A stretch of 64,000 bases of DNA from Psammoneis japonica (Eukaryota), in the NCBI GenBank assembly GCA_008632985.1, contig QPGO01000010.1, positions 496,001 through 560,000 on the forward strand, read 5' to 3'. Under the pieces are notes generated by a model, which was given only the letters and a program-made list of their open reading frames with translations, searched no databases and was not told the DNA's origin. The position numbers and the translations under genes are program-made. Positions 270 to 63,850 of the stretch are shown here, piece by piece (position 1 is the first letter of the stretch; each line of letters begins with the position of its first letter).

Positions 270-470
270 TTCCGCCTGTTGCGTCGGTGTCGGGCGCCTG
301 ACTCAATGCTTAGAGAGAACGCCGCCATTGGCCATTTGGCGGAAAGCTAAAAGCTAATTACAAAGGATGTTTGTTTGTCTGAAGAATTGGCGTCTGCAGT
401 GTGGCCAGCTTCCTTGGCCGGTGGGAATAGAGCAGAGGGCACCACTGGATAGAGTGAAGCTCTTTGGACT

Positions 471-790
471 GTTGTTTCAACACCTGCCTGTTGAGTGTTT
501 TGTTGCATCCGGGAGATGGACGCCGGCTCTCTCAATGCCCACCAATGTGGGTGACCGATGGCTTCAACACTCTGTTTTTGAGTGTGTGCACAGGGAGACA
601 GACCATTTCAATGTCTCTCAAACATGCACCCCGGTGGGTGGATGGTTTCAACACCCATCCCCCCCCCCCCTCCCCCAGGAGGACGTGGGGATGGCTTCAA
701 ACCCTGTTGCGTGCACATGCCAGGGGATCAGTGGTTTTTCAACACATGTGTCAAACATGTGCCCCAGGGGACAGACAGCTTCAGCACCTG
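471..790 (+). repeat. Degenerate ~40-45 bp minisatellite, core GGAYRGYTTCAACACC (cluster 1)
   Basis: Core copies near 471, 558, 640, 690, 731, 775. Confidence 0.7.
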
Positions 791-949
791 CACTGAGTGT
801 GTGTGTTGAACCAACAAGACAATGTTGCCAAAAGGGAACCCTTTGAGGTTTCCTGTGCCACTCGTCACACTTGTCCTGGTTGCTCCTGTGGTCTGCGGCA
901 GCCATGGTTTGCCTGGAAGTCCTTGACAAACTTCAATCTTGCAGTGCAA

Positions 950-2430
950 AAGCTGCCTGCTGACACCACAGTGCAATTTGTGCAAACCAGATGATTCACT
1001 CCAAAGAGTGAGAAAAAAAAGGTTGGTGAGATTGGCGATGAATGCACACTCGCTGGTCCGGTGTTGCCAAATCCACCATGTCAGGATCCAAAGCATCTTC
1101 TCTTCAACATTTCCACTTCTGGGTTTTTTGCATTTCCTGCTCATTCTAGATGCTCCAACAACACACTCCTTCCACTTGGGTCAATGTTCAGAACACTTGT
1201 TCATGACACACAGGGGAAGGCCCCTCAGGCATCCACACACAGTGGGTCTGCTGGCCCAATCTTCTTGAAAGTTGCTGTTGCGATTCACATTGGAACATTG
1301 CCAGTTGGCATGTCACTCTTCATTGGCAAAATCCAACATCTCATTGAGTGCATCCATTGTGCCTTGTGTGCACTCCATGAACTTGCCAATGCAGGCACAG
1401 CAATTCTGCTCCACCAAGTTCATCATGTGAGGACCAACCAACCACCAGCTCATGATCTCCAACCATTGACCACTTCAGGATCTGACACAAAGAACCCCAT
1501 GCTGTGACAAGCCCACTTGTCCGGGGTCTTGCCTTGTTGATGTTGCAATCAACAACAGTGCTGGCTTCAGCATGCAGAAGTCAAGTCCATTCTTGTCTCA
1601 CACCTTTCGCAATGGACCTTGCCACACTCATCATCTCTCAGACTGTGCATCATGAGCGGGCCACAAACCCCCTCATCATCCATGCCATGTGCAGGACAGC
1701 TGATCATTGGCATGTCCGTCAGTGCTGCAAGAACATCTTGTCTGTCCAGTGTGAGTTGAAGATTCCCATTCCTGGATCTGGCAATTTGTTGGTCCTTCAA
1801 ATTTCTCTCGGGCCTCCCATGTGCCATTGTCAATTTCAGCAACATGTCTTGCCCTGCAACTCAGCATCAAAGCCAATCATTTGCCAGTGCTCGCTGTTCT
1901 TGTGCACATTCATTCTGTGCAGCTCAGCATCTTCTGTCACCATGCTCCCATCAGCATGTGTGGAGAACATCAGTGCTGTGGCAGTGGACACACACTTTGG
2001 CTGACTCAGTGTCCAATTTTTCACAGTGTCATCATGCAACTTTTTCATGGTGCTTTGTCCTGGCTTCTGCAATTCTGTCCATGTTGGTTCAAGTGTCTCA
2101 ATCTCCACATGTTCCACATTGGGGCCAATCATGTCATTCCTTTCATCTGAGTTGATCATCAATTGGCGCAAATTCACAGTGTCCTGTTGCAAGTGTGTGT
2201 CGACAGTCAGCAATGTCCTGTTGCTCATGAGCCATTGCATGAGTTCTTCTCTTGCATGTGGAAACTGCACTCCTGTCATCACCTTCCTGCTCTGTTGTGG
2301 GATGATGTCCAGCCCACTCATCACCTCGGTCACATGTTGTTCCAGCATGGAATGGTCCAAACTGTTGAACCATGTCTCACAATCACTTGGCCATTTCAAT
2401 GTGATCAGCTCAAATGTTGCCCATTTGCAA
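950..2430 (-). pseudogene. Decayed protein-coding sequence of unknown family
   Basis: Chained minus-strand frames (ORFs 1836-2399 and 1567-1845, plus a frame through ~1500-1000) read as natural protein if C/H are reverted to Y and TGA to CGA, e.g. LVEQNCCACIGKFMECTQG, RPTVCGCLRGLPLCVMNKCSEH. Confidence 0.45.
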
Positions 2431-2562
2431 TGACAATGTTCTCATCTACATTCATTGCTTGTTGACACAACCAACATGATGTGCACTGCTCTCAAGGCTC
2501 CTGTCCTTGCATCACATTCACACTGAGCATTGAAACTTTCATGGATCTTTCACCCACATGCA

Positions 2563-5500
2563 TCAGAACTCTCGTGCTTTTGTTTGACAGCCCACAGTGG
2601 CATGTTTAAACTTTTGGAACTTCTTGCCCTGTGATGGCTTTGTCATGAAGTCTCCCAGCATGTTGTTGATGGGACAATGCTGTGCTTGTAAGTTGCTCTT
2701 CTTGATCTGATTGTCAACAAGAAGTGTCAAACATTGAGTGCTCGTGACTGCTTGCCAGCACTCTTGTGTGCCCATCAGTTTCCAGCATGATGGCACTCTT
2801 GCTGTCCTGGTGCAAGACATTGTTGTCAATTGGATGCCCTTGGTGCTCCATGAACAGCTTCATCCACAGTGTCATGGTCATGGCATCATTGACTCCAACA
2901 AGCTCAGCTTCTGTGCTGCTGCGGGTGTTGAGCTTCCTGGTGCTTTGAGATGGCCTTCACTGCTCCTTTGCCAGCTGTCACAACTCCTCCTGTGTGGCTC
3001 TTGAAATCTGGATGTGCTGCAAAAAACAATGCACCCACATGCCACTTGATGACTTGGAGGTCCATCACACCTCACACTTGATGCAGCAGCAGTGACTTTG
3101 TTTCTTGTCTGGTGGCTCACATGCTTGAGACAATGGACCAGCTTCTCCCAATCCTTGTTGGTGGGAGCTCTGGCTTGCATGCATGATGTGGCAGATGTGT
3201 GTCCATTTGGCCTCTCTTGGACAGGAGCAGTCCCTTGGCCACCCATGTGCGGAAGGTCTGAGCCTTCATGTCTGACAATCTTGTGCTGTCGGAGTCAGAT
3301 GTCTGCTCTCTGTCTGCTGGTGTCACAGCAAAATCCACACTCGTCAACTTTTCCAGAATTTTGATTGATCATCTTGCAAGCACAGTCTGCCATGTTGACT
3401 TTCACTTTGCCCTTCTGGCTGAAGTCCTGGGTCACACCAAGACAGTCATGTCTCTTCCCCTGCACAGCAATGACTTCACCATGGCTGCCATGCTGCATCT
3501 TGTTTAGCCAGCTCAGGAACTTGTCATTTGCTTTTAGGTCATTGTGGCTCAACAACCAGTCATCCACATGGAACCAAATCATGCGCTGCTTGCGGTTGAC
3601 TGTTTGACTGGCATTGCATGGATTGCATGGGTTGAACTTAAAGCCTGTCTTTTTCAAGTCTTTCCAAATTGATTGTGCTGCAGCAGAGCAGCGGTCAGCA
3701 TGCCGGAGATGGCTCTGATGAGTCAGATGCAGAGGACTCTCTTGCCTTTCTCTGGGACCACACCATGAGGTCCGCATGGGGTTGGATTGATGCTCACTGG
3801 CATGTCCACCAGCACTCCTGCAATCTTCATCACAATCCTGTCTTTGCCTTCTCCAGGCTCTGGCATCATTGTCTGCACAAATGCACACGGAACATCGGTG
3901 CTCATTTCATTGCAGCTTTCATGGGCATCAACAATCACCATCATCAATGTCCCCTCAAGGGATGAAGTGGGGCTGGCTGACTCATCTTTGTCTGGTCATT
4001 TTTGGGTTGGGTTGTCATTGCAGACCATTCACCCTTTTGTGCAGCCATCTCATTTTTTGGTGAGGAACATCAAGGCTGCCATGGGCTTGGTCCTTTCAGC
4101 CAGAGTCATGTTCTTGGCTGATGCTGGTGCAAAGCACACTTGGTCATGCAACTTCTGCTTGATTTCTTTCTCTGAGGCATTGCGCCCCTTCTGGCCAAAT
4201 GCTTTGAGGCCTTTGTGGAGCAAATGTTGTTGGGCAAAACATGCACCCTCTCCACTTTGGAGTCGGTCATCAATCTCACATGAAGTGTGCAAGCAACATT
4301 GCTGTCTCCACTTTGTGCACAATGTTGCCCTTTGGTGCTTGAGCTTGTGTTGCTCCCTTGCCACTTTTCTGGCTTCTGCCACTCCTGCAAATCAAACTTT
4401 GTTCTTGTCTTTGTGTCCATGTGACTTCACCTTGAATGGTGCTTCACTTCTTGTGACTCTGCTTGGCGCAGCTCTTGTTTCTTCCTCCAATCATTTGCAA
4501 CCCCCATCTTGTGTCTTCCTGGGGTTCTTCATCTTGTTTGGACTCTTCACTCTCACAGTGTTCATCATCATCTGGGTCTTCTTCTACCTTGTGCTCTTCT
4601 TGAGCTTTGTGCTGTTGATTGGGGCTGGACCTTTCATTGGCTGACACATCATCAGCTTCTTCATGTTCATCATCTGAGTCAGGTGTGTGTCTTTGCAGTC
4701 TTCAACTTCTGACTTGGTTGGTGGTGCAGTTTTATCATCATTTTTGCTTCCTTTGCTTTCATCATCCCTGTTGCTGTCGCTTTTATTTTTGTCATTGTTT
4801 GCTCCTGCAGTCCAATCAGCATCACGCAAATTGTCTCTGTGCTTTCCTGTGAACTTGAATTCCTTGATGCCTTGTTGGATGGCCACATCCCTGACAGCTG
4901 TGACATGTGTGTTGGTCAAGGATGTGGAGGTGCACACTTGCAGGGATTCAACAGCTTGCCCATGTGCAGGTTCATGGCACAGTGTCCACCCCTGGGCAAA
5001 TTAAAATGTGGTCACAGGCAAATGCTGTCAATGCTGCACACTTCCATGGGGTTTGTCTTGTTGTTTGTGATGTGGGAAATGACAAGTTTCCCAAACTTGA
5101 GCTGGACATGTTTGTTGCAGCCAAGGTTTCTTTGTTGCACAGCAGTGTGCTGTGGACTGCAAGTGTCAGAGTGAAATCCTTTCTTTTTGCAGGTGCACAT
5201 TCAACATGACAGGAGTGTTCTTGATCATGGCTTGCTTGCACATCAACTCAGGTGTCATCTTGTGTGGCATGTGATGTGCAGTGGCTCTGGTTTGCTCCTT
5301 GATGGTCTGAGTGCTTTGCTCATTTTTGGGAAGATGGTCCTTGGCATTCGTGGATGCAAGTTCTAGATTCATGCCATCAGCAACTTCTGCCAGCATGTCT
5401 TTGAACTCAGGATCACACCCAATGAAGTCAATCTTAAATGAGGCCATGTTGCGCTGTCAGAGAATCATGTCCAAGGCTTTGCAAATGTGTTTGTGCTTCT

Positions 5501-7350
5501 TGGACTTTCACCTCACACTTGATTGATGCTTGATTCTTGTCTTGTCAACTGCACGGGCATCTTGACACTGCATGCTTCCACAATGTCAATGCAGAGGGCA
5601 GAGGGCTGCACCTTCTTTCTGCTTGTTGTAGATTTCAGGTGGAGCTGCAACAGTGATGTTCCTCTTGCAGGAATGGTGTGCATGCTTGGTCTTGTCTTTC
5701 AGTGTGTTCATGTCACCACATCCTGGCACAGTGCAGTCTCCATCCAAAGTGTCCACTCCTGCATTGGTGGACAGAGATCAATCTTGTTCCTTGCCAGTTC
5801 TTGCACTTTGTGCACCAGTTTCTGGCTTGCTGTCATGATGCTGAGGGCAGAACCATCATCAAGGATGATCTCATCTGACTTGATGCCAACATTGGCTGGG
5901 ATCAACCTCATCTCTGGCCTGTCTTTGGCCTGTTCAACTGCTTGGAACCCATGCCACAAAATGTTTCTCTTGCTCTTGCTGGAGTGTGATGACTGACTTG
6001 ACCTGTGGGTGTCTGTGCCAGCATTGATGCTGCTCACTGACAAAGTCTGACAGTCTTCTTTTCTCATCTGTGCATGACTCTGTCCCCTGGTGTCAAGTTT
6101 CCTCCCTGCTGGTGTTCTTGCACCAGTCTTTCTGTGGGATCTCATCCTCACATTTGCAGTGTGAGGACTTGTGGTTTGCTCACCACAGCAATGGCACACC
6201 ACAGCACCATGTTTGCCACTCTGGGCATGCTGACTTTGGTCTTGCAGGTTCTTGGACTTGTCATTGGTCTCATCTCCATTCTTGTCTCTGGGACAACCAT
6301 CATGCTTCTTGCTGCATTGCTTGCATGGATTGATGTCTCCCTTGGGTGGTTCAGCAACACATCCAGCATTGCCTTCTTGAGAGTCTTTGGGTGTGAGTCA
6401 CTTCCTGGGTTGCAATCTCTCATGAGGCTCCTCTCTTGAGGTTCTTGTGGAAATGGTCATCACTGTTTTCCACTGACATGCATGCAGTCCATGTCTTGCA
6501 TGCAGCATCTTTCAGCGCCTGCTGCACTGCTTTTGTTTCTGCCACTGTGCCAGTGCAGTCCTTGCACTCCTTGGCATTCTTGACAAAACCATCCAGCATC
6601 CCACTGTGGAGAACATTGCTTGCAGCATCTCATTGATTCTTAAATCTTGACAGGCAGTCATTCAGAGTGACTGGTTCTTTGTTGTTGCACATCCAGCACA
6701 TGCTTCAGAGACTTGGCAAGTGCACGGAATGGGTGTCAACCTCTCATGGAGTCAAATGTCAGTGACTGGATCAGCTTCAACAGCTCAATCAGGTCATCTC
6801 TGATTTTCTCACAACTGGGTTCAGCTGGCACTCTCTGATTCACAAGCTTGGCAAAGCAATCATCCAGGATCACTGAAAATGCAGCAGTCTTGTTTTCCTC
6901 AAGCTTCCTCACTTTCTCATTGCAGCAGTGAAATGCAGCCTTGTGCTGATGTTCCAGCTCTTTTTCTTCTTGTGATCTTTTGTCTGCCATCTCCTGGTGG
7001 TCTGAGGCATCTGCCTTTGGCATTGCCATCTTTGGTGAGCCCAGAGTGAGTTTCACATCATCAGATCTCTTGTGCTTCATGATGTCCGTTGACCTTGCCT
7101 CAGGTGAACACCCTGCTTGACCACATTTCTTTTGCACGTGGTTGATGACATTCATCTTGACATCCTTGCATGTTGCATTCCATGAGTCAATGTTCATCAA
7201 TGATGGACAAAACTTCATCTCTGGCTTCTTAAACCTCTTCTTTGGGCCAGTCTTCTTGTTCTTGTTGTAGGAAAACTTTTGGCCTCTGCCACCTCTGCCT
7301 TGGTCATGTCCTCAGCCTTCACCACTCATCCCACCTCCTCCTCTGCCACT
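2563..7350 (-). mobile_element. Ty1/Copia LTR retrotransposon internal region (gag-PR-IN-RT-RNaseH), degenerate; no LTR pair recognised
   Basis: Minus-strand order: gag (ORF 6736-7218), zinc knuckle CHCCG (~6190), protease IILDDGS (~5860), integrase CDPEF...PKNEQSTQTIKE (~5300-5420), RT STDVPCAFVQT, FNPCNPC, WFHVDD, KRHDCLG, RNase H end HCPINNMLGDFMTKPSQGKKF. Integrase upstream of RT is the Copia order. Many stops and frameshifts. Confidence 0.9.
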
Positions 7351-7439
7351 CACAATGCAGCTTTCCTGTGTCAGATGATCAAATGGAGGTTGGCACCACA
7401 TGCACCAAACACAGTGCTTCTGACTCATTTATGCACTCT

Positions 7440-7520
7440 GGGAGAAGGGCAGCTTCAACACCTGTTCAATGCACACCCCATGGGACAGATGGTTTCAAAC
7501 TCATCAAATGCACACCCCAG
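7440..7520 (+). repeat. Minisatellite cluster 2 (same TTCAACACC core)
   Basis: ggcagcttcaacacct (~7449) and gatggtttcaaactc (~7488), each followed by a TGCACACCCC-like tail. Confidence 0.55.
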
Positions 7521-9100
7521 CATCTGCAGCATGTTTTGCTCTTGATGAGAAGATCAGTTGACAAGAAAAAAATTTGCACCTGTGGCTGCATTCTCCACAC
7601 AAGCATTGCAATTTTTCAAGAATTGACCAACAAGGTGGTCATGGCAACTGCAACTCTGAACAATGTTTTGATGCTGCTTCATTTTGAGTCACAAATCTGG
7701 AGTTGCCAAAGCCATCATTTAGGCTGACACAGTCAATTTTTCCAACAACAGTGGTCACAGGTTTGCAGTGTTTTTGTCATTTGTGGTGCAGTGATGCCTC
7801 ATTCAGAGCTGACCCATTTGTTTGGGAGAGCTTCAATTTGATTGCCCACTGCATGTTGCATGTTTTTCAGTGCTCCTGCCATGTTTGTCTCTTTGTTGCA
7901 TCCTGCACTGCACAACTCAGCCACCAATCTGGTGTTGTTTGCATGACACCAATGGCACACCCCTTTTGCGACCCAATGTGTCCCCTCATCACATGTTTGA
8001 CAACAATGAGAAAAGGCTCTCCTTTCAATGTGAATGTCTCATTGAACCAACCCCCTGTTCACAGACAATGCCATTACAAGCTTGAGTCCTTTCCTTCTGC
8101 CCAATGTCAATTTGCACTCCAGAGCCCAACTCACAATGTCAACCAATCACTGCAATGTTTGTGCCATCATTTGATCCTGGTCATCATGCTCATGCTTCCT
8201 GTTGCCACAATGCTCATCAACCAGAATTTGACTTTGTTTCACACCATCACAATTTGACAAATTCCAACATCAACCCAGATTGCAGTGTGGATCAATCTGC
8301 ACTTCATTCAGCACCACTTTGTGAAGCTGTTGACAGACAACAAACAATGCTGCAAAACCTTTTTGGGGTGCCAAGTCATCAGGGCCAACATGGCTGCAAT
8401 TTGATTTTGTGGATTGTTGTGGTCTGTGTTTTGCACACTGTTTTAGCTGCTGTGGCAGTTCATTTCTGCTGGCCAGCACCAAATCATGTTCTCTGTCTGT
8501 GCATGTCTTCCTTCTTTCTCTGTGAATGCAGCAGTTCTCATCTCTTGAAGAAGATTGCACAGGGTCATTTGGATGCCTTGTTGGAGAGAAAGATGAGCAT
8601 TCTCCGTGCACCCAACTCCAGGACCCAGACTGCATGGGTGGCAGTTGCAAGCACCAAGGCTTTGGTGACAGAAAACTCATTTGACATGTTGAGACTTTGT
8701 GCATGGGTCTTCATCATCAACCAGATTGGCCACAAAGACTTCTCACTTGCTGACTCCTCACAGCAGGAAAGCTTGACAAGGCTGCAAGCCTCCACAAAAT
8801 GTGCATGGCATGCAACCAATGAAGCTCAGGGCCAACCCCACATTTCTGACTCACATCCCAACCAATCCTCTTGCTAGATCCATTCTTGCTTGAACTTGAG
8901 ATCAGGATGAAATGGCTTGCCCATGCATCACAGTTCTTCATCACTTCCAACAAAGAGAAACATGTTTAAAAAATGCTGCCACAAACTTCTCCATTCTCCT
9001 CAAGATGTTTTGCAGTCTCTGGCATTCCCCATGCATTTCTTTTGGAAGTTTTGTGCACCTGCTGCCACTCAGCAATCAAACCTTTGAACTGGTCACTCTG
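7500..9100 (-). pseudogene. Decayed protein-coding sequence of unknown family
   Basis: One minus-strand frame over 8280-7500 (IWVDVGICQIVMV*NKVKFWLMS...TGGWFNETFTLKGEPFLIVVKHVMRG...) is interrupted almost only by TGA, as expected from CGA->TGA decay. Confidence 0.4.
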
Positions 9101-9119
9101 GCGGAGTTTAGAAATTCGA

Positions 9120-10460
9120 GTCTGGCTTGCTGCTGTTGTTGGGGACAAGGCAAGATGGGGCCACAGTGCCACAAGATCAACCTTGCAATGCTCAACCACA
9201 GTTCTTAAAGTCTCTCTCCTGGGGCCCACCAGATGCTGCCAGCACCCTCATCCTGCAGTTGTCAGGTTTGGTGGCACTGTCATGGTGGGGTCCTTTCACT
9301 CCAGAGTTCTCAGGAAAGTCAAGTCTCTGTTGCTGCAGGGAGAAAGGTCACATGGGGCCACAACACCACAAGATCAACCTTGCAATGCTCAACCACACTT
9401 CTTGGAGTCTCACCCAGGGCCCACCAGACACCACCAGTGTCCTCAACTTGCTGTTGTCAGGTTTGTCAGCACTCCCCCTGCCATGGGGTCTTTTCACTCT
9501 GGAGCTGTGAAAGTGTCACATCTGCTGCTGTGGGGGAAATGTGACATGTGGCCACAAAACCACAAGATGATCAACCTTTCAATGCCCAACCCAACTTCAG
9601 CTTGCTGTTTTCAGGTTTGTTGGTGCCATCATGGGGTCCTTTCACTCTAGAGTTTGAAAACTCAAGTCTGCTGCTGTTGGGAACAAGGTGACATGGGGCC
9701 ACAATGCCACCAGATCAAACCCCAGCAATGCTCAGCCACAGTTCTTGGTCACATCTTGGGTCTGCCAGACACCACCAATGCCCTCAGCTTGCTGTTGAAA
9801 TTGGGTCACAACTCCACAAGATCAACCTTGCAATGCTCAACCACAGCTCTCAAAGTGTCACCTGGGGTCTGCCAGAGACCACAAACACTCTCAGCTTGCA
9901 GTTGTCAGGTTGGTTTGCACCATCATGGATCCTTTCACTCTGGAGTTGGGAAGTTCAAGTTTGCTTCTGTTGCAAACAAGTTGACATGGGGCCACAAGAA
10001 CGCCACAAGATCAACCCTGTCAACAACCAACAAGAGTTCTCAAAATGTCACCTGGGGGGTCTGCCAGATGCTGCCATTGTCCTCAACTTGCAACTGTTGG
10101 GTTGGTTGGTGCCACCATGTGACCCTTTCACTGTAGAGTTGGGAAGTTCAAGCACACAAAACAGGCCTTGCACTGCTCAACCATGGTTGCTGCAGAGTCA
10201 CCTGGGGTTCACAAGAGACCAGAAGTTTGATGTGTGCTTCTGGCAGATGGGACACAACAGGGTGCCACAAATGCTCAACACTGGTCTCACACACTTGCTC
10301 AGTTCAAACCACTGTTCTCAAAGTGTTGCCTGGGGTCTGCCAGAGACCACACCAGTGCCCTCAGCCTGCTGTTGCTTGTTGGGTTGGTTGGTGCCATTGT
10401 GGGGCCTCTTCACTCTGAAGTTGGTGGGAAGCTCAAGCCAGCACCAACTTGCTGGAGACA
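9120..10460 (+). repeat. Degenerate tandem repeat, ~8 units of 100-195 bp
   Basis: Anchor CACAAGATCAACCTTGCAATGCTCAACCAC-like at ~9171, 9368, 9562, 9711, 9816, 10005, 10155 (weaker ~10300), usually followed by CCTGGGG...CCAGA and CCTTTCACTC. Confidence 0.85.
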
Positions 10461-12199: not shown

Positions 12200-13090
12200 G
12201 GTGACAAGCCTGGCAGTGCCACTGAGTTGCTGCCCATCCTTTTTCCACTGGAGCATCTCCAAAGTGAGGAGCTTGAGTCTCCAATGACAGCAAATGAATT
12301 GGAGGTCATTTGCCAAGGGGGAATGAGCACAGAACAGTCAGTCATTTGAGGAGTTGCACATGTTTGGCAATGCTTGGGTGACTCCAGCCACACCAAGATC
12401 ACTGAGGCCAGAAGAGAGCACCCCTGAAAGGGTCTTTAAACCCTGAACAACATGCACAGAACAAACATCAGAGGAGCAGCAATCTTGAGGGTGCTCAGGC
12501 AGCTGTGCCAAGACTGAGGCCAAACAGAAAGCACTGAGCTGGTCGGATGGTTGTAACACCCATTGAACCTGCATCCCGGGGGGAGGGGGTTGGACAGTTT
12601 CAACACCTGCCAAACATTCATCCCAGGGGTTGGATGGTTTCAACACCTCCTGTCAAACGTGCACACGGTTTCAACACCTGTGAAACTTGCATCCTGGGGG
12701 ATGGACATTTTTACACCTGTTAAACTTGCATCCCAGGGGAGGGTGACAAGCCTGACAGTGCCATTGAACTGTCCATGCTTCTTCTGCCAGAGTGTCTCCA
12801 ACAAGGAGCTGGAGACTCCAATGGCAGTGAATGGGTTGGAAGCTGTTCGCCGAGGGCAATGGGCACAAACCAATCATCTGAGGAGCCGCATGTGCTTGAA
12901 AATGCTTGAGCACTTCTTGCAATGCCAAGACTGAGGCCAAACAGAGAACAACTTTAAATCCCGAACAATGAGCACAGAACAATCAGTGCTGTAGAGGAGT
13001 CGCATGCTTGAAAATGCTTGAGTGGCAATGCCAAGACTGAGGTCAAACAGAGAGCACCAAAATCGGACTATAAATCCCGAGCAATAGACT
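12200..13090 (+). repeat. Local duplication plus ~110 bp repeats
   Basis: GTGACAAGCCTG... block at ~12201 and ~12743; CCAAGA...CTGAGG-type units at ~12393, 12507, 12924, 13030. Confidence 0.75.
12541..12745 (+). repeat. Minisatellite cluster 3 (GGATGGTTTCAACACC core)
   Basis: Five core copies near 12545, 12592, 12632, 12664, 12703; same orientation as cluster 1. Confidence 0.75.
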
Positions 13091-18823: not shown

Positions 18824-18855
<32 letters not shown>

Positions 18856-49908: not shown

Positions 49909-50029
49909 CGTCGTGGGCCCAACCGTCTGTCGCATTCTGAGTTCGCAGGCTCGCAGGTCGCAGGCTCGCTGTCGCACAGAGCTGCTCACATTTTCGAGTG
50001 GAGAACGCCGCGCACCTCCTGGTTGATCG

Positions 50030-53000: not shown

Positions 53001-56000
53001 TTTGCTTGGGCAATGGCGCCACATCCACGGGGTGCAAAGCCTCCATCTGGCATGCTGCTGCAGCTCCTCCCATGTTGGACTGCATTTGCCAATGCAACAA
53101 TTGGATGGAGTCCATTGCTGACATGACAGATTGGCAAGTGCACTGTTCTTTCTATGGCACAACTTGTTCATGAGCTCCTTCTTCCAAAAAAGAATGAGGC
53201 TGCTCATCAGTGCAACCCTGTCTGCCCTCACTCTTGCCTTTCTTGTGGGCATCCAATGGAAGACAGAGGGACTCTTCTCTGAGGATTGTGCAGGTGCTTC
53301 AACACAATGGACACTGTGCCTCCCTTGCATGATTTTCTTGTTTCACCTCTGGAATCATCATGGCTTGAGGGGCGGATCTCAGCCACCTGTGAGTCGGATG
53401 TTGATCCCATGCTGTGCTCACTTTGGCATGAACAGAGTGACATGTCAGATGGCGACAATTGTTCAATGATGTCTTTTGACACTGCAGAGCACTTTCCAGG
53501 AGATTCTCATGTGTGGGAGTCAGGCCTGCTTGTTTTTCAACATCAGGAAGACAATGCAGTGCAAATCAGCTCACATGTGTGGAGCTCATGGCAAGAATTG
53601 TGGGATGCTCACAACAAGAACATTCATGGTCACAATGCATCAAGACTCCCAAGTCTTCACAGTGTTGGTTGGAAGGAGGCTGAACCAACTGCTGCTGCAC
53701 ACAACAGATGCCAAGAATGCCTGGCTGAGAATCATGGTTGCTCTGGTGAAGGGTGTCAATGAGCACCTTGCTCACTCAACAACAAAAATGCAAAACTGGG
53801 CCTTTATGGTTGAACTGCACCTTGAGGAGAGTCTCAAAGAGGTGAGGCATTTCACCCTTTGTGGCACCACTTGAACCATTGTCACCTGTTTCAGTGGGGT
53901 GTCACCCTCTGACCCCTTGGGCTGGGTGGTTTTGCTCATTTGGGGATTCCCCAAAATGGCCAGGGTGAGAGGGGGTTGCCTCACCCTTTTGGGGAGTGGG
54001 GACAACCCAAATGAGGGCAATTTGGTGGGAACAAATGCCTGAAAAGGCTCGTGGGGAGGGGAACAAAAAACAAGTGGATCGCGGCAATTTCGAATTGATT
54101 TGGTTTGGGCGGGTGTGCTTCTCAATGCAACAGAGTCAAGCGAAGCTGAGCAAGCAATGCATCCACCAGCAGAGAACATCAATCACGCAACACTCTGCAT
54201 TTGGAGCTTGCCACCATTGCTGTTGCACTGTTGCACCACAGATCATTCTTCTTCACTGCTGCTGATGATGATGCCACTGCTGCTGCAGCCCATGAGAGTG
54301 ACAAAGGTCAGCGATCACCCCAGCAAGCATGGCTTTTGCACGTTGCACAGCTGGCTGATGGTTGGCCAGAAGTGGCTCCTCCTCCACCAGAGCTGGCCGA
54401 GCATGCCATCATAGATGTTTTTTGGATCTGCAGATGCACAGATCCAACAGCGCTGCTGCAACAGTGAACGGCGCTGCTGCTGTGCTGCCGCTTGGTCAAC
54501 AAAGCAGCCGCTGACGACTTGCTGATGGCCTTGGCAAAACAGCAACTTCTGTGGCAGCTAACGCTCATCTCTTGGCTGCCACTTGTTCTTGCAAGGAATT
54601 GTGCAGTCCACCATGACACCACTTGGCACAGCTCTGGGAGATCTTGGCATTGCAGGTCTTGACGTGCATCTTCTTGATCTTGCAGAGATGGGGGTGACTG
54701 CTTTCATTGCATTGGGCCCTTTGTGCGACTGCTTGCGCCAGCCACACATCCAACCAGCTGCATCTTTAGACACACATTTGTCATCTCAGATGCTTTTGGA
54801 TTGCTGCTGGGAGCTCTTCGTCATCCTTGGTGACAGCAGCAACACTGCAGTTGACACTCTCATGTGAGCATTGCCCTGCTGCTCTTTGTCACTCATGTGC
54901 CAACAAGCATTTTGTGAGGAAAAGTCAGCCCTGAAATGTGAGCAACAAAGATGAGGGTGCATGAAACTGAATGAAGAGGATGTGGGTGAGCACACAAATG
55001 ACAAGATGCAGCAGCAGATCTCAATGAAAAAAACATGCCGGATGCGCGGCATGAAAAACAAAGAAAGATGCAGCACCAATGTGGCAAGAACGAAAAGATG
55101 CTGCATCAAGGTGGCAATGAATGGAGCAACTGTTGAAGAGACAGCTGATGCAAGGGTTCATTGACTTGTTGGGTGTCATCTGAATGAAAAGATGTGGCTG
55201 CCACACACGTCACAATGAGAAACATGCAGCAGCACCAGCTGTGTGGCATCAGAAAAAAATCAGGTGGCATGAACATGGCAGCAATGAAAATCTGTTGCAG
55301 CTGTGGAGAAGCTGCAGCAGCTGCCATTGTCAAAGATTGGTGCTCCAAAGAACCATTGAAGCAGCAGCATGTGGAGGGTGATGTGTGATGTCTGAATGGA
55401 GCTGACAGCCGCAACATGCATCTGTGGTGCAAGTGTCAAATCGCACAGGGGAAGCACAGGGAATTTCCAGTGCACAAATTTTCATTCATGCATTTGGCAC
55501 CACGTGTGTGACAGAGCATCATTCATCACAATTTCCCAGGAATTGACACTTCCTGTGGAAATTTGTGGTGAAAGGTGGCAATCCTGGGGAACTTTGGGGA
55601 ATCCTGCAGCAAAAGGAACCAAACTGAGCTTCTGGCAATGCCCACACCGCCGGCTGGTCCATGTCAGCTCCCACCACATTGTTGGGTGTGCTGGGAGTGT
55701 GGGTCAACTGCCACCAACCTGGCTGGCAATGGAGAGGCAGCAGCACCAACAAAATTGGATCTGTCATTTTTGTCATTGTTGAATGCTCAAATGGCTGCAC
55801 ACAAACAAAAGGGCCAAGCAAGCAAGCTGCGATCAATGGTGTGGGGCACAGATGTGAGGCACAATGACAAAATGAGGCATCATGGCTTGGTTTGTGCTGC
55901 AGATGTTTGTGACAAGAGCTTCCCACAACTGGAGCATGTTTTTTGGCACTTGTGCTTGCAAAAATGGGGCTGAGGTAAAAAAAGAACAAGCCTGTTTTGA

Positions 56001-59000
56001 ACACTTGTCAAACCAAAAGATCTTGTTGCAAATGAGAAAGAGAATGATGCCACCAACACCATGAGACAAAACCCTCTGCACAGACTGCAGGGCTGCAAAA
56101 TCACAAAAGTGTTGCAACAAAAACTGAAAAGGAGGTGTGGACTGTGGAAAAGAAGAGTGGGGCAAGGGGAGGACAAAACAATGTTGCAGAGCCCAAATCC
56201 AGATTTGTTTTAGAAAACCTGCACCCCATCTTCTCCCCCCCCTTTTCCTCTCCTGGAGGAGCCAGCATGCACTTGCTGCTCTGCTCTTGCCAAAAATGCA
56301 GCTGAGCAATCAACTCTTTTGACATGAGCAAAAACCATTTTGCCAAAGAAGACTTTGCTGCTGTTGCTCATTCACAAGCATGGGGTGGAGCAGCCACTGG
56401 CCAGAAGAGTTGTCCATTGTTGTTCTTGATCTGCAGCTGCTGGACAAATCAGAGATTGAAGCCTGCTTGTGGCACTTTCCTGCTTTGACTGGCAACTTGA
56501 GAACTGGGTGTCATTGTTGGCAAGAGCTGGCCCATTGGTGGTGGTGGGCATGTGGGCAAATGAGAGCAAAATTCATGGACCACATTTGCCCACTTTGACC
56601 AGCCATTGAGACCAAAAACATTTCATCACACTTCATTTCACAGAGGACAATTGCTGGCTGTAACCACAGCACAGCAAACATTCATTGTTGAGCAAACACA
56701 GATCCTGGTGGTTGTTGCCTGGAACCAGTTTGCAGCACTGTTTGCTCTGCCACTGTTGTTGTTGTTGTTGTTGTTGTTTGGACCATCACTCTGCAATGAC
56801 CTTTGCAGGTGTGCAACACAGGGACTCTGACTTTCCTTGAATCTCTCAGCCTGTCACTTTCTCAAAAATTCTTTCCAGAAATCGTGCACACTGGGGAGGG
56901 TTGTCAGTGCTGCGTCTTGCCCTGCCATGCACTTGCAAGTTGTTGCCAAACATTGCCATGGGGGGTGAGCACTTTTTTCTTTTTTTGCTTTTTTTGTGTG
57001 CAGCTGGTGCTTTGCTCTTTTTTCAAATGGTGCCAGTGCCCACATTGACAGAGCTCCTGCTGTGTTGCACACTTGTCCATGTTGTTGGATGGCAGCTGTT
57101 GATCACATGCAGCAACCCTCTTGTTTTGATTTTGTCAACATCTGCAAGAGTGACACACCACTGTCTCACAAAAATTCAGCAGTCTCTCTGCCACCACCCT
57201 CTGGATCTCTTTCCTCTTTGAGTTTCTGTGCATTGTGCCTCCTCTCTCAAAGCTCTGCACAGTGGCTGGTCATGCACCCCCAAAACTCAATGCACCCATG
57301 TCTTTTTGAACAATTGATGAACTCCTTTTCCCACAGCAGGCTCCAATTTTCTCTCTAAAGTCACTGGTGAAAACATGTTTTTTGGCTCCCACCACCACAC
57401 TGGGCTTGTCCAGCCAGCAAATTGCACTTCAATGCAGCAACATTCTTTTGAAGCTTTTCTAAGTCCTTTTTGCACACAATCATGGCAGAGAGGAACTGGT
57501 GGACAGCACACACATTGGTGTCACAATGTCCTCAAGTCATGTTCATGGAAACAACAAGAGAGCTGTTCAGCAAAGCCGAGTGCAATCTGTGCACTGCCTG
57601 GCAGCCAGCATGCATTTGAGGCAGTTAATCTGATCAAATTCTCGTTGTGTGGCAACAGCCAGATTTGTTCAATGCTCTGTGGTGCATGCAATGATTTGCA
57701 GGAGAGGTGGTGGGAGTGACTGAGCCATGTTGTTGCAACCAAAAAGACTTCTTGATGAACAAGACCTCAGCTGAGCATGGATGATCGCGCAACATTGTGT
57801 GCTCACAGAGTGCACACCACAGCTCCTCTCAATGGTGGGTGACAATGCCTCCCCTCAATGCCAGCACTGGGTGATGACAGTGGTGTGGTGTGGTGGGTCA
57901 CTCACCACTCTTTGCTGTGTGTGTGCACACAACACAAGAGCTTCATGGGAGCCTGCCAAAGCAGACTGATGCTGCTGGCCACATGTTTTTTTTCTCAGGT
58001 TGGTGTGAGAGCTCAGGTCAATCATGCCATTTGCCTGAAAAGCCAGCAGCCATGATTCGATGCTCTGCATTGTTCATGCATGTGTGGCAAGTTGTGGCAA
58101 TGTGCCAAACACATCAAACCTTGGCTGTGGCAATGACTCTTGGAGCATTGTTGCCTTTTTGCTTTGGCTCTTGTTGCTGTTTCACTTTGTGTTGGTTTCT
58201 GCTCATTGTCTCAGTTTCTTTCTTGCCACACATCCGTGTTCTTGTTAAAAGCACACACAAGCAGCCACATGCAAATCCTGCCTCCTTTTTGGATGCTTTT
58301 GTTGCCAAAATGCAAAGCACTTCTTTGCAAATCAACATTGTGGGGCATGTTGCAGCAAGGCACAATGTGGCAAATGTGGCAAAAAGAGGCAGAAGACTTG
58401 GTTTGTGCTGCAACAGATGTTTGTGAAGAGAGCTTCTCTCTCCACACTGCACGTGCCTGCACAAAAAATCAAGTTCCTTTTAGCCACTGTGCTTGCCCAC
58501 AAAATGGGGCCAAGGAAAAAAAAAAGATTGCTCTGGGCTGCTGGTCAAAACAAAATGCTCTCCAGTGCAGCTGTGAAAAGGAAGTGTGTGCTGCACAAAG
58601 AACAGTGGGACAAGGAGGGCACACTGCTGCAGTGCTCAACAAATCCAAGAGCAAGAAAAGAAGGTTGGCTCTTGAATGTTGCATCTCACCCCCTTGCTCC
58701 CACCTGGAGCTTGTGTCCAAAATGCAAAATTGTTGCTCTGGTGGCCAAAAATGATGCTGAGTTGCTCATGTCTGAAAACCTTCACACTTGCATCATGTAA
58801 AAAAAAAACAGATGACAAATCACAACACCTGGTGCAGAATGACATGGTCTTTTTTGAAAAACTGCTGTTCCCACCACAGCTGATGGATGTGCAGACATCC
58901 TTTCAGCACCTGTGCTGGCTCACAAAATGGGGCCAAGGCAAGAAAAGAAGAACAAGACTGCTCTGGTCTTGTTGATCCAGATGATCTTGTTGCAAATGAC

Positions 59001-62000
59001 AAAGAGAGGCAATTGTGGCTGTGAGACAAAATCCTCTCCAGTGCAGACTGGCTGTGGGAGGCTGAACAGTCACAAGAGCAATGCAATGAAGATTGAAATG
59101 GAAGTGTGTGCTGTGGAAAAGGAGTGAGACAAGAGTGGGAGAGCACATTGCTGCAGAGCCCAAATCCAAGAGCAAGAAAAGAAGGTTGGCTCTTCAACAT
59201 TGCATCTCACCCTTGTTCGCACATGGAGATTGTGAGCAAAATTGTTGCTCTGGCCAAAAATGCAGCTGAGTCACTCATGTCTGAAACTCTGCCTTCATCA
59301 TGTCAAGAAACAGATGACAAATCACAGAAACAACAAGTGTTCAAGAGAAGGTTCTTGCATTGCAGTGTGTCACAGAGGGCTGCACACTTGCTGGCAAAGC
59401 AGCACTGTCTTTTGTAGAAAGCTGCTGTCTTGACAACAGAAAGACACACAGAGTTTGAGTCCTGGCACAAAGGCAGTGCTTTGAGTGCAGCTCCTGCACA
59501 GCCTCTTCATGCATGAAGTGTCAATCTCAGTGACTCTCACTTGCTTGCAGCAGGAGGAGTTGCACCGCAGACTGCCAAGTTTGACTGCCCCCTTCTTGCG
59601 GTGGCTGCTTCTGGGGCTCTCAAGCTCCACATGTCCAGCTGTCATTGGAGTGGCAGTTTTCCAAAAAAGACTGTCATGATTTCCAATCAATTGAACTTGT
59701 TGCATCACAAGTGTGCTGCTGTCCCTTTGCTGTGTGGGGCACCAGGGAGGTGTTGCATCATGAGATTGTTCTCAGCATTTTGTGCACACCTTGCCACCAA
59801 AACTGTGCCGGATCACATTTGCAAGCTGCCAAGGCCACCACCAAGCTTGTCAAAGAGGCCTGCAATGAAGCAAGATGATGCGAAATGTGGACAAAAACAA
59901 GAATTGTTCAGAGCTCTTGCATGGTGCCGTCTGCCTCAGGCTCTGTGTGTTTTGTTTTTTTTGTGCTTCTTGGTGGCCTTGTGTTGGCATGAGGATCCAT
60001 TTCATGTGAGTGTGTGCAAAGGAAGTGCAAGACAGCTGCAGATGTCCGTCTTCTTCAGAGCACTTCCTTTGAGACCACAAGACATTTTTGTCAAACAAGA
60101 AGAACCACAATGTTTTCTCATGTCATGTTCATGAAGGCAACAAGACACAGCAGTCAAGTGAAGCATGCAGCAATTTAGCAGCGTGCGTTTAAGTCAGTTG
60201 ATCTGAGCACATTCATGCAAAGTTGATTGCCAGACTTCAACCCTTTGATTGACTGCCTGACCACCTGCACTGACAACATTGGTGGTGTTGCTGTGGGTGT
60301 GTTTGTGAAGAGAGTTTTCCATGCCTGCTGCAGTGTGCTTGCACAAAAGCAGTGTGTTTCAGCACTTGGTGTGCTTGCAAGGAATGTGGGAGCACAAGGA
60401 GGCAAAAAAAGAAGAAGAAGACTGTTTTGGACTTGTCAATCCAAAAGATCTTGCTGCTGTAAATGACAAGGAGAATGCACTGATGTTGTGAAACAAGAAA
60501 ACCCTCTGGTGCAAACTGTGGAGCTGCCAAATCACAAGAACCCAGCAACAAAAACTGAAAAGAAAGTGTGGGCTGTGGGAAAGAAGAGTGGGACAAGAAA
60601 GGCACATTGCTGCAGAGCCCAAATCCAAAGCAAAAAGAGAAGGTTGGCTCTTCAATCTTGTGCATCTCATCCTCTCACTCCCTGCTTGCTGGAGCTTGTG
60701 CACAATTGTTGTGTGACAGTGCCAATGATGTTGTTGAGTCATGTCTAAAACTTTGCCAGCATGTCAAATGAAAATGGATGACAGGAAATTCTTTGAACAA
60801 CAAAAACAAAAGAAGGCTCCTGCATCACAGTGCACTGCAGTGAGCTGCACCTGCTGTGAGTTGAAGCAGCGCTGTCTTTTTTGGAAAGCCACTGCCCCTG
60901 CAACAGCAAGACATGCAGAGTTTGAGCCCTGGCACAATGACACTGCTGTGAGTGTGGCTCATGCACAGCCTCTTCATGCATGAAATGTCAATCTCAGGAA
61001 CTCTTGGTTGCTTGCAGCAGGAGAAGCTGTGCCACAGATTGCCAAGTTTGACTGTCCTTGTGCTGCTGGGGCTGCCTCAAGCTTTGCATGTCCAGCTGCT
61101 GTCATTGTTGGAGCAACAGTTTTCCACAAAAGACTGTCATGATTTCCAATCAATCTGAGTTGTCACATCACAAGTGTGCTGTTCCTTTGCTGTGTGGGGC
61201 AGTGTGAGGTGCAGCAGCACAAGATTGTGCTTGCACACAGTGTTTTTGCGCACTCTTTTCTCCACCACCAAAACTGTGCTGGGTCACATTTGTGAACTGC
61301 CAAGGCCATCACCAAGCTTGCAAAAGATTTGATGATTTTGAATGTGAAAAAAATGAGAATTGTGCAGCTGGCTCTTCCCCACTGTCTGCTTCAGTTTGTG
61401 GTGTTTTGGTTTTTTGAGCTTGTGCAGGCATGATCTCATGTTGGTGCCCAAAGGAAGTGCCAGACAGCTGCAGATGTTCATCCTCTTGAGAGCAGCTCCT
61501 TTGAGACCACAAGATCATGTTCTTGTCAAATGACAAGGATCACAATGTTCTCATGCCATGTTCATGAAGATAATGAAACACAGCCATTCAGCAAAGCACA
61601 CAATTTGGCAGTGTGCATTTGAGTCATTTGATCCAACCACATTCCAAGAACATGTTCCAAGGATGTGAGGCCAATGGCCAGACTGAAACCCTTTAAGAGT
61701 CACGCTGTGTGCATTGAGGTGCAAATGAGTTTTGGTCAATTTTTGAGCACATTTCCAGAAAGTTGGTTTGCCAGACATCAATGCTTTGCATGTTTGAGTG
61801 TGCACAATGGTGAGAGTTGCAAGGATGCACTGGTTGTTGGACCTTGGCTGTTGTTGTTGGAGTTGGGCAGCAAACACCGCCCCTTTGCTTTGGCTGTTTC
61901 TGCTGCACTCTGTCTTGATTTTTCTCCTCTTGCATCAGATCTGCTGTGTTCTTGCTTGCCAAACACCACGTCATTGAAAAGTGGCACAAGTGCCACATGT

Positions 62001-63850
62001 GTGCAAGTTCTGTCATTGTCACATGCTCACATTGCTGCCTGCAAACAAAAGGACCCAGCCAGTGAGCAAACTGCAGTCAATGATGGTGTGGGGGCACAGA
62101 CAAGGCACAGCAACAAAATGAGGCATCATGACTTGGTTTGTGCTGCAGATGTTTGCAACAAGAGCTTCCCATGCCCACAGCGTGTTTCAGCACATTTTGT
62201 CCTCTCACCCCCTTCTGGAGGAGCCAGCACACACTTGCTGCTCTCTTGCCAAAAATGCAGCTCAGCAAGTCAACTCTGCTCACATGTGCAAACAACTTTT
62301 TTCCAAAGATGGCTTTGCTGCAGTTGCTCATTTGCAAGCATGGGGTGGAGCACCAGTTGGGAGAGTTGTCCATTGTTGTTGATCTGCAAGCCTGTTCCAG
62401 CTCCAGGTGATCCACGATCCATCATGTGAGGTGCCAGCCAAAAAGTGCATTCAGCACAACAAACTTTTTTAATTTTGATTGTTTCAAAAATGGAAAGGTG
62501 AGTGCACATTAAAAAAATTGTGCACGCTCACCCTTCTGAAGTTGGAGTTTGTTGTGCCAAATGCAAAAATGGGACAGCGATGCATCGTGCCCCTTTTTTG
62601 GGCACCCCCTGGAGCTAGAGCAGGCCTGCAGCTGCACAAATCCAAAGATTGAAGCCCACTGCCAGCTGCAGATCCCTGCTTTAACTGGCAATTTTTAAGA
62701 GCTGGATGTTGTCACTGACAAGAGCCAATCCATTGTTGCTGGTGGCGGTCATTTGGGAAAAAAGAGAACAAAATTTATGGACCACATTTGCCCACTTCAA
62801 CCAGCCATTGAGACCAAAAGTGTTTCATTTGATGGAAGACAATTGCTGGTTGTGGCCACAGCACAAACACTCATTGTTGAGCAAATGCAGAACCTTGCCA
62901 TTGCCTGGATGTTGATTGCAGCACCACACACTGTGTTGTTGTTGTTGTTGTTGCGAGGGACCATCGCTCTGCAACAAGAACCTTTGCAGGTGAGCAACAC
63001 AGCCTCCCCTCCCCACTGCCACCTCTGCCCTCCCTTGAATCTCTCTGCCCGTCACTTTCTTAAATTTTTTCTGGACATCTTACCCACCTGGGAGGGTTGT
63101 CAGTGCTGTCTTGAACTGCCACATGCTTGCAAGTTGTTGCCAAACATTGCCACGGGGAGGTGAGCACTGGTTTTGCCATCTTTTTTGTGCAGCTCTGGCA
63201 CTTTTCTCTTTCTTCAAACATCGCCACATTGACGACAGAGGAGCTCCTCTCTCCTTCTTTTTTCCATGTGTTGTGCACTTGTCAATGTTGTCAGGTGACA
63301 GCTGTTGACCACACACAACAACTCTCTTGTTTTGATGTTGTCAATGTCTGCAAAATTCAGCAGCAGTCTCTCCACACCATGCCATGGGATCTCTTTTCTC
63401 TCTTTGAGCATGTGCATCATGCCTCTCAAAGCTCTGCACAGCTGCTGGTCATCTGCCCCTTGAAACTCAACACACCCATGTGTTTTTGGACAGCAGATGC
63501 ATTCCTTTGCCCACACAGGCTCAAATTGTCTCTCTAAAATCACTGGTGAAAACGTGTTTGTTCTTGGTCCCCACACCAGCACACACTGGGCTTGTCCAGC
63601 TATCAAATTGCATTTCAATGCAGCATGATTCTCTCGAAGCTTTTCCGAGTCCTTTTTGCACACAATCATGGCAGAGAGGAACTGGTGGACAGCACATGCA
63701 TCATTCATGGTGTCACAATGTCCTCAAGTCGAGAGTGCCGTTCACTTGGCCGAGAGGAAGCCGCGTGTGCAATCCATCCACTGCAATCAGCGTGCGTTTG
63801 AGGCAGTCGATCTAATCAAATCCAAATCACGATGGCACGCTAATGGCACG
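50030..63850. repeat. TpA/CpG-depleted domain 4: two diverged head-to-tail macro-units (~50030-57690 and ~57690-63850) with internal duplications
   Basis: 50045-50200 matches 57698-57810; 56220-57640 matches 62200-63825; a 1.2 kb block at ~51190-52450 recurs at ~58900-60140 and ~60300-61570. Confidence 0.8.
52888..55770 (+). mobile_element. 5'-truncated non-LTR retrotransposon insertion with 18 bp target-site duplication
   Basis: Identical TGTCATTGTTGAATGCTC at 52870-52887 and 55771-55788; single empty site at 62011-62028 in the second unit. Decayed C-terminal ORF motifs: LDCICQCNNW...TDWQVH, LVHELL..HQCNPVCPHSCLSCGHPMEDR, RWRQLFN, WQELWDAHNKNIHG. Confidence 0.75.

Follow-up and report, generated by a model that had tools for sequence, protein, structure and literature searches.

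Mutation directed at the dinucleotide 5'-TA-3' (TpA) is known from the chlorarachniophyte Bigelowiella natans. In mutation-accumulation lines of this alga, according to the available text of the preprint by Mettrop et al. (10.64898/2026.01.13.699255), 231 of 302 nuclear mutations fell in insertions of nucleocytoplasmic large DNA virus (NCLDV; 186 kb) and virophage (25 kb) DNA, and 230 of these 231 were A to G or T to C changes, all on TpA, on either strand. The same text gives rates of ~6e-7 per site per generation, about a thousand times the background, for an effect that only some lines show, and reports for the genome 324 TpA-poor coding sequences enriched in reverse transcriptase and DDE domains as well as 124 clusters that are TpA-poor and CpA+TpG-rich. 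An ADAT2-like adenosine deaminase is proposed there as the agent; CpG, diatoms and flanking context are not mentioned in the available text. The present work concerns a window of the diatom Psammoneis japonica (the whole 64-kb stretch analysed, from contig QPGO01000010.1), in which four blocks of repeated or mobile DNA, one of them a Crypton-like tyrosine-recombinase transposon, are nearly free of TpA. The favoured explanation, held with good confidence, is that a region-confined process acting at the level of DNA has turned nearly all TpA in these four blocks into CpA or TpG.

A literature search found no TpA-directed hypermutation other than that of the B. natans preprint, and none in diatoms; the available text of a Phaeodactylum tricornutum mutation-accumulation paper mentions no TpA effect (PMC6604790). 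An earlier note on this DNA, made from the letters alone, had known of no description in diatoms, which still stands for diatoms, while the phenomenon as such is described in the preprint. The locus and the B. natans system, as far as the preprint's available text goes, are alike in the change from TpA to CpA/TpG, in its occurrence on both strands, in its confinement to discrete foreign or mobile blocks, and in the resulting TpA-poor, CpA+TpG-rich clusters. They differ in host (a stramenopile here, a rhizarian there) and in target, which is a Crypton-like transposon with interspersed and tandem repeats here and NCLDV and virophage insertions there; no sign of viral origin of the blocks was seen in the window. 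The degree also differs, with saturation here (observed/expected, o/e, 0.04) against a rho of 0.45 for the NCLDV block. Erosion of CpG alongside TpA, and a flanking rule that strongly favours RTAY over YTAR, are found here and are absent from the available preprint text. Finally, the B. natans mutations were seen de novo, whereas those of P. japonica are read from a sequence footprint.

Fungal repeat-induced point mutation (RIP), which depends on RID and DIM-2 and is premeiotic in timing, likewise consists of dinucleotide-specific transitions in repeated or mobile DNA, has sharp limits and inactivates transposon genes. Its direction is opposite: C to T mainly at CpA, creating TpA and stop codons and lowering GC, whereas at this locus TpA is at o/e 0.04, CpA at 1.85, GC at 0.48 within the blocks as well as beyond them, and new TAA or TAG triplets cannot be formed. 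Duplicated sequence is present as repeats within domains 1 and 4; the Crypton-like element is seen once in the window. RIP itself was considered and rejected, the CpA to TpA enrichment and fall in GC that define it being absent and TpA being destroyed instead. In purpose and logic the process is RIP-like; chemically it is the reverse of RIP. On the side of adenine chemistry, natural TadA, ADAT and ADAR enzymes act on tRNA or double-stranded RNA, and no naturally occurring enzyme has, to our knowledge, been characterised that defends a genome by editing TpA in duplex chromosomal DNA. TadA, ADAT2-3, ADAR and the engineered adenine base editors all convert A to inosine, read as G, and prefer U or T 5' of the adenine (in part after the available text of the B. 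natans preprint).

Blocks were called by segmentation at no more than 2 TA per 300 bases, which yields four domains, with domain edges set where dense TA ends or resumes. The earlier note had placed four TpA-poor domains in this DNA, and the segmentation finds the same four within ~100-200 bases of where it put them.

451-13068: TpA-depleted domain 1, unclassified interspersed repeats and a degenerate tandem array; 40 TA (o/e 0.048), CG o/e 0.10, CA 1.95, TG 1.83
25218-26697: TpA-depleted domain 2; 3 TA (o/e 0.04), CG o/e 0.46
24943-25217: gap of N, which hides the left edge of domain 2
28790-32517: TpA-depleted domain 3, Crypton-like DNA transposon; 9 TA (o/e 0.038), CG o/e 0.57
49885-63812: TpA-depleted domain 4, nested and tandem unclassified repeats; 34 TA (o/e 0.036), CG o/e 0.15, CA 1.86, TG 1.89

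TpA counts per kilobase are 0-9 at ~1-13, 25-26.7, 29-32.5 and 50-63.8 kb and 27-83 in most genic kilobases. Within the called segments, base composition predicts 806 TA for domain 1 (510-12562; 36 found, o/e 0.04, CG o/e 0.09), 65 for domain 2 (25218-26565; 3 found, o/e 0.05, CG 0.46), 232 for domain 3 (28797-32373; 9 found, o/e 0.04, CG 0.53) and 924 for domain 4 (49989-63663; 34 found, o/e 0.04, CG 0.13). The count of about 40 that the earlier note had made by eye for the first 12 kb thus agrees with both delimitations of domain 1. Pooled, the four domains (30,653 bases) hold 82 TA (o/e 0.04), 320 CG (0.18), 3407 CA (1.85) and 3631 TG (1.83). In the genic remainder (32,473 bases) there are 1245 TA (o/e 0.56), with CG at 0.98 and CA/TG at 1.16-1.18, in keeping with the normal TpA that had been ascribed to the neighbouring genes. 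With genic dinucleotide frequency as the baseline, 1175 TA are expected in the blocks against the 82 present, and the Poisson probability underflows to 0.

The edges of the blocks are sharp, TA density shifting within tens of bases. At the left edge of domain 3, for example, 9 TA lie in the 260 bases of non-coding flank at 28531-28789 and none in the next 830 bases. On the left side of domain 4, TA ends at 49884 and CG stays dense until ~50028 (49885-50030), so that the TA boundary lies ~100-150 bases outside the drop in CpG and the two erosions do not share an identical edge there. Stop triplets in the four domains number 737 TGA, 47 TAA and 24 TAG. The change of TA to CA or TG creates no stop codon, which accounts for the many long open reading frames (ORFs) in all six frames of the blocks and for a Crypton-like frame that is open although its enzyme is dead.

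The fate of the lost TA can be followed by mass balance, for which the dinucleotide frequencies of the genic remainder were the baseline. The joint deficit of TA and CG against the joint excess of CA and TG is 1034 (426 TA, 608 CG) against 1081 in domain 1, 82 (49 and 33) against 56 in domain 2, 214 (128 and 86) against 212 in domain 3, and 1152 (490 and 662) against 1214 in domain 4. Over all domains, 1093 TA and 1390 CG are missing, and 1173 CA and 1391 TG have been gained. Since the deficit is matched by the gain, the lost TA became CA or TG by transitions at T or A, and little room is left for transversions. AA and TT together are not depleted in the blocks (4867 observed, 2275+2592, against 4775 expected, 2491+2284). 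The equal GC of 0.48 within the blocks and outside fits a rough cancelling of TA to CA/TG, which raises GC, and CG to CA/TG, which lowers it.

Evidence that the eroded DNA once had ordinary TA comes from domain 3, which carries a single long frame.

29037-31466, plus strand: Crypton-like tyrosine recombinase frame, ATG to TGA (protein P0001, which spans 29034-31463; 810 codons)
30576-30578, plus strand: codon CAT (His515), in a column that is Tyr in 94% of relatives

An exhaustive HMMER search gave 202 relatives of P0001 at E<=1e-3, the best with E 4.5e-51 and 28% identity. Word-indexed protein searches returned no match for P0001, nor for the repeat ORF at 51292-52104 in domain 4; the success of HMMER with P0001 indicates that such blanks reflect the sensitivity of the method. 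P0001 itself has no Pfam match. DUF3504 (PF12012) is present in 5 of 14 relatives at E<=0.001, two of them above the curated cut-off, and Phage_integrase is weakly matched by one of the 14. An alignment of 28 sequences shows the pattern GRYxGLRG ... TGHxxR ... ARHxSxNSQxxY, in which R336, H480, R483 and R505 are nearly invariant among relatives and kept in P0001. When the alignment profile was compared with PDB, 7 of 8 matches were tyrosine recombinases, with HxxR and the terminal Tyr aligned (best E 0.0072, weak). DUF3504 derives from a Crypton tyrosine recombinase, and the CryptonS elements include those of oomycetes and a diatom, according to the available text of Kojima and Jurka (2011, PMC3212892). 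The domain 3 element shares with Cryptons the one long protein, the DUF3504-bearing relatives and the R..HxxR..(R)H..Y pattern; its copy differs in that the terminal Tyr is now His and all but one tyrosine are lost. Judged by these relatives, the element is a Crypton-like tyrosine-recombinase DNA transposon, whose R-H-R-Y tetrad is complete in the inferred ancestor, not in the present copy. A tblastn search of the window with 150 relatives found matches in domain 3 only, and a scan of metagenome contigs with P0001 alone yielded 457 matches to the pattern, none of them a relative.

Of the 810 residues of P0001 a single one is Tyr (0.1%), where 29 relatives average 3.4%, and the shares of His and Cys are elevated. 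When 46 relatives are aligned with P0001, the nine columns with at least 50% Tyr read His four times, Cys three times, Tyr once and Phe once in P0001, whereas His or Cys stands at 9 of 158 other conserved columns (Fisher p 5.9e-7). The codons at the lost-Tyr columns are CAT/CAC and TGT/TGC. Other conserved residues are mostly kept (Leu 20/24, Phe 10/12, Trp 3/4, Arg 4/6), and the two lost arginines have become His and Gln, which are CpG products. Because TAY to CAY and TAY to TGY are one-step products of TA to CA/TG, the Crypton-like ancestor had normal TA. This answers the possibility, raised in the earlier note, that the active family was itself TA-free. The column of His515 is probably that of the catalytic tyrosine, lost by TA to CA. 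Among the relatives of P0001 from a public representative library, 6 of 150 have less than 1% Tyr and three have none, with His and Cys raised; the latter are P0063 (334 aa, His 4.2%, Cys 3.6%), P0102 and P0108. These three look like further TpA-eroded Crypton-like copies, a hint that the signature may be more widespread.

Copies of repeats within the blocks allow the process to be placed in time relative to duplication.

51197-52887, plus strand: repeat unit copy A; partners 58936-60245 and 60300-62028 at 71-79% identity; used in the CA/TG discordance test
56431-57538, plus strand: second repeat family; partner 62626-63730 at 73% identity
9093-10438: degenerate tandem array inside domain 1, period ~197 bases, equally TA-free

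Self-comparison pairs 51197-52887 with 60300-62028 (79% identity), 51300-52558 with 58937-60245 (71%), 58936-60214 with 60400-61644 (73%) and, across domains, 804-1160 of domain 1 with 50732-51089 of domain 4 (72%). Within the tandem array, 9155-9598 has period 197, 2.3 copies and 76% matches. Parts of domain 4 are multi-copy, as indicated by summed contig depth that peaks at 270, 660 and 482 against ~60 in the flank. Sixteen alignments of repeat copies inside the blocks, each of at least 200 columns, were compared with five alignments of genic DUF6824 paralogues as a control. Where the repeat copies differ at two adjacent bases, CA in one against TG in the other makes up 171 of 434 differences (39%), compared with 20 of 289 (7%) in the genic paralogues of similar divergence. 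At 36 sites one repeat copy retains TA, and at 28 of these its counterpart reads CA or TG. Discordant sites make up ~2.3% of dinucleotide columns, roughly half of the value for full independence, and part of the erosion therefore predates the duplications. To judge from the copies, TpA mutation demonstrably continued after the repeats had been duplicated.

The content of the blocks was looked for in several ways. Among 232 block ORFs of at least 70 aa, Pfam at E<=0.01 gave no real match (one sub-threshold DUF630) and no reverse transcriptase domain, domain 3 included; the window has no tRNA and no Rfam match. Of the element classes that had been named from the letters alone, the Crypton-like element of domain 3 and the tandem repeats at 9.1-10.4 kb are upheld, and Copia, non-LTR and tRNA-derived elements find no support in these scans. 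A minus-strand HVDD string at 3559-3570 (...WFHVDDWLL...) could be an eroded YxDD box of a reverse transcriptase with Tyr changed to His and is recorded as a lead; ten minus-strand ORFs around it were rescanned against Pfam at E<=5 with nothing relevant found.

Additional information can be garnered from contigs of a public run, X1, which were compared with positions 44400-64000 of the window at a word depth of ~60-70, the same as in the genic flank. The contigs, the longest of 315 kb, reproduce domain 4 piecewise, each piece being 0.8-2.2 kb long and showing 0-4 differences from the window. Over 6.4 kb of genic and intergenic DNA, X1 and the window differ by 13 letters and 20 gaps, which means that X1 is not simply the same build. 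That contigs assembled from exact words give the same TA-free sequence argues against a base-calling artefact; the earlier note had looked to independent reads for TA at these sites, and X1, whose independence is unproven, does not show it. Domain 4 has 26 listed differences from X1 (three further rows of the table being left out), among them four at residual TA.

53805-53806: residual TA of domain 4, reads TG in X1
56661: residual TA of domain 4, reads CA in X1
60460: residual TA of domain 4, reads CA in X1
63061: residual TA of domain 4, reads CA in X1

Thus 4 of the 34 residual TA of domain 4 read CA or TG in X1. Three sites are TG or CA in the window and TA in X1 (60477, 63381, 63409), and 6 of the 26 differences are between CG and TG/CA. 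In the genic 5.6 kb adjoining domain 4, TA reads CA or TG at none of 230 sites, compared with the 4 of 34 in the block (Fisher p 2.3e-4). Within domain 4, bases of TA are more often variable than all other bases, with an odds ratio of 39 (p 7.7e-6), and per site TA changes about four times as often as CG (4/34 against 3/101). From this variation the TpA process is probably still active.

Survival of TA relative to genic DNA depends on the flanking bases. It is highest for TTAA (0.60), followed by CTAA/TTAG (0.18), CTAG (0.10), GTAA/TTAC (0.085), CTAC/GTAG (0.054), ATAA/TTAT (0.037) and ATAG/CTAT (0.021), and it is zero for ATAC/GTAT (0/168), ATAT (0/88) and GTAC (0/94). The preference can be written on one strand as T-A-[T>C>G>A]; in terms of the duplex, erasure strikes RTAY, and YTAR is spared, TTAA above all. 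CG follows a different rule, its survival running from 0.42 in GCGC and 0.33 in CCGC down to 0.12 in TCGA and 0.095 in ACGA. CpG decay by deamination of 5-methylcytosine is like the loss of TpA in that a self-complementary pyrimidine-purine (YpR) step becomes CA/TG on either strand in the same blocks. It differs in acting on C:G pairs, in surviving best at GCGC and worst at ACGA/TCGA, and in lagging in domains 2 and 3, where TA loss is nearly complete and about half of the CpG is left (in domain 3, ~93% of TA and ~43% of CG are gone). From the different context rules and the different degree of loss, the erosion of TA and that of CG are two separate processes in the same blocks, the one at TA being, as read from the sequence, several-fold faster per site.

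Both strands are affected alike, with 3407 CA against 3631 TG and Tyr to His against Tyr to Cys at 4:3. Neighbouring discordant CA/TG sites have the same orientation in 79 of 166 cases (0.504 expected). Strand-coordinated, processive mutation was rejected on this count and on CA/TG run statistics equal to those of controls. By the same reckoning each TA site is hit independently, on either strand, and not in processive single-strand clusters. The earlier note had proposed strand-symmetric T to C and A to G transitions at TpA, by which TA and CG converge on CA/TG; mass balance, the change of Tyr to His and Cys, and discordance between copies bear this out, and the variation at residual TA against X1 and the same spectrum arising de novo in B. 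natans lend it further support.

Taken as a mechanism, the favoured process would make A:T to G:C transitions at TpA, hitting each site independently on either strand, while ordinary CpG to TpG/CpA decay runs in the same blocks. It would be fastest at RTAY (ATAT, ATAC/GTAT, GTAC) and slowest at YTAR, above all at TTAA, would come to a halt no more than tens of bases from the edges of a block, and would inactivate transposon genes without stop codons by removing tyrosines, including the catalytic Tyr of the tyrosine recombinase. It may be an activity of the host that resembles a genome defence and is of one kind with the de novo TpA hypermutation of B. natans, and the window, by analogy, may be the long-term saturated footprint of the process caught acting in that alga. 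The chemistry could be an enzymatic conversion of adenine to a G-like base or, alternatively, a change of the opposite thymine to the same effect. The first choice, if a tentative one with somewhat less than an even chance, is a polynucleotide adenosine deaminase of TadA/ADAT type. The step from adenine to inosine is favoured by the 5'-T rule common to TadA, ADAT and ADAR and by the episodic behaviour in B. natans.

Several points weigh against this account. The same sequence outcome can come from adenine deamination, from thymine modification or from decay of a symmetric TpA mark. All the evidence is from a single locus, and the term mobile element is established for domain 3 only, the other three blocks being without a recognisable coding domain. 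The tyrosine comparison draws on nine columns in alignments of ~21-28% identity. The repeat alignments overlap and their counts are not independent, though the contrast is large, and the context baseline is genic DNA and not the ancestral repeats. X1 is one sample, perhaps the assembly's own source, of unrecorded library type. The variable TA sites are unpolarised and are not pedigree mutations, and two of the differences towards TA belong to double changes of neighbouring bases close to the edge of the domain (63380/63381, 63409/63410) and could stem from a paralogous contig.

Among other explanations, decay of a heritable symmetric TpA modification in heterochromatin (N6-methyladenine, or 5-hydroxymethyl- or 5-formyl-uracil at RTAY), mispaired or mis-repaired, would be the A:T counterpart of 5-methylcytosine decay at CpG and not a dedicated mutator. 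TA and CG are both self-complementary YpR steps able to carry a symmetric, maintainable mark, their erosion shares both the blocks and the sharp edges, and the lack of strand coordination fits slow site-by-site decay. Four-base palindromic preferences such as that for RTAY are typical of DNA-modifying enzymes that read duplex DNA. Such decay is nonetheless unlikely: we know of no such TpA mark in diatoms, although no dedicated search was made, the implied rate is high given the losses in domain 3 and the relative variability of TA and CG, and the B. natans process, by the preprint's available text, is episodic between lines, which suggests a regulated activity. Less likely still is a by-product of T:G mismatch repair after deamination of 5-methylcytosine, with Pol eta-like errors (WA to WG, where W is A or T) at nearby A:T pairs, a mechanism that the earlier note had offered. 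Pol eta does prefer WA and makes A to G errors, and TA loss coincides in position with CpG loss. However, AA and TT are undepleted, the gain of CA and TG covers the whole deficit of TA and CG with little room for the transversions of Pol eta, and in domains 2 and 3 the by-product would have outrun its trigger; the mechanism thus fits poorly.

Two further explanations carry hardly any weight. Editing of transposon transcripts from A to I by an ADAR- or ADAT-like enzyme with 5'-U preference, followed by reverse transcription and reinsertion, would account for the 5'-T preference and is discussed in the available text of the B. natans preprint. Yet the only element that could be classified is a Crypton-like DNA transposon, which moves without reverse transcription; the tandem array and the non-coding flanks are eroded to the same degree; the hits fall site by site and evenly on the two strands; and allelic differences at a fixed locus affect TA. 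For domain 3 and the tandem array this route is excluded. A sequencing or assembly artefact, in which a modified base is misread as G or C, is about as improbable, as are elements natively free of TA through selection or foreign origin. The extremity of the depletion, its confinement to probably modified heterochromatin, and the sample that X1 may share with the assembly would suit an artefact, but the exact-word contigs up to 315 kb long give the same sequence at ordinary depth, and a mixed or strand-dependent miscall would not yield clean single-allele CA or TG. Native freedom from TA is contradicted by Tyr to His/Cys at conserved columns, the catalytic one included, and by the CA/TG disagreement between copies.

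The genes around the blocks include uninterrupted ORFs for an aldehyde dehydrogenase (Aldedh), a methionine aminopeptidase (MetAP), a mitochondrial carrier (Mito_carr) and FIST. The B. natans genome is intron-rich, in contrast to the uninterrupted Aldedh, MetAP and Mito_carr frames here. DUF6824 scores above the Pfam cut-off in two ORFs, and a third related copy lies within the same 16-24 kb tandem array. The three paralogues (16164-23700) are spaced by ~3.0 and 2.5 kb, are 72-79% identical and are normal in TA and CG, which indicates that tandem gene duplication alone does not attract the TpA process. For one DUF6824 ORF the nearest Atlas clusters are DUF6824 with known members mostly from Bacillariophyta (scores 0.84-0.86, a lead), whereas the aldehyde dehydrogenase carried no taxonomic information in an Atlas search; a literature search on DUF6824 found no paper. 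Between the DUF6824 genes, at 18528-18860, are (TC)13 and (TCTA)9 microsatellites in a TA-rich kilobase (o/e 1.19). Directly downstream of the Crypton-like block is an uncharacterised open frame of 962 codons (32660-35548, plus strand) with normal TA and CG and no Pfam family.

Between genes, the intergenic spacer at 48085-48997 contains direct repeats (48085-48240 with 48645-48795, and 48357-48539 with 48804-48997) with normal TA, and it differs from X1 by 11 clustered substitutions among those listed, and by several indels, one an 11-base deletion, which marks it as locally hypervariable. A contig of a further run, X2, skips 97 bases at 46688-46786; the skipped piece has CT..AC ends, or GT..AG when read on the minus strand, and looks like an intron spliced from a minus-strand gene. 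X2 may thus be transcript-derived, although it is not recorded as RNA. X2 covers the genic bins and has depth in domain 4 only in the two bins touched by one mismatched 62-base piece, which might mean that X2 is spliced RNA and domain 4 silent; as missing cover is no evidence, X2 was not drawn upon. A third run of the sample, X3, gave no cover of this stretch.

For annotation, TpA-eroded blocks defeat homology-based recognition of transposons, as the absence of Pfam matches among their ORFs illustrates, and, with TGA as the only stop left in them, give rise to long spurious ORFs. The locus adds a second lineage for TpA-directed A:T to G:C hypermutation, reported once before, in the 2026 preprint on a chlorarachniophyte, and a saturated signature in a diatom would make the process no peculiarity of one alga or of viral insertions. 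The sharper target motif, RTAY with TTAA spared, is one that any candidate enzyme must reproduce, and the process runs alongside CpG erosion yet is separable from it. Diatoms include transformable model species, in which knockouts of deaminase, TET/JBP-like and adenine-methyltransferase genes are feasible; a natural editor of adenine in chromosomal DNA, if true, would be of interest to base-editing work. It is conceivable, if rather less probable than its opposite, that stramenopiles and rhizarians share, or evolved twice, an RTAY-specific editor of chromosomal A:T pairs that acts on silenced mobile or foreign DNA, where it would form a second and faster arm of defence next to CpG methylation and would disarm transposases with no new stop codons. 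Such an editor may deaminate adenine in duplex DNA, or it may write a symmetric TpA mark that is resolved to G:C.

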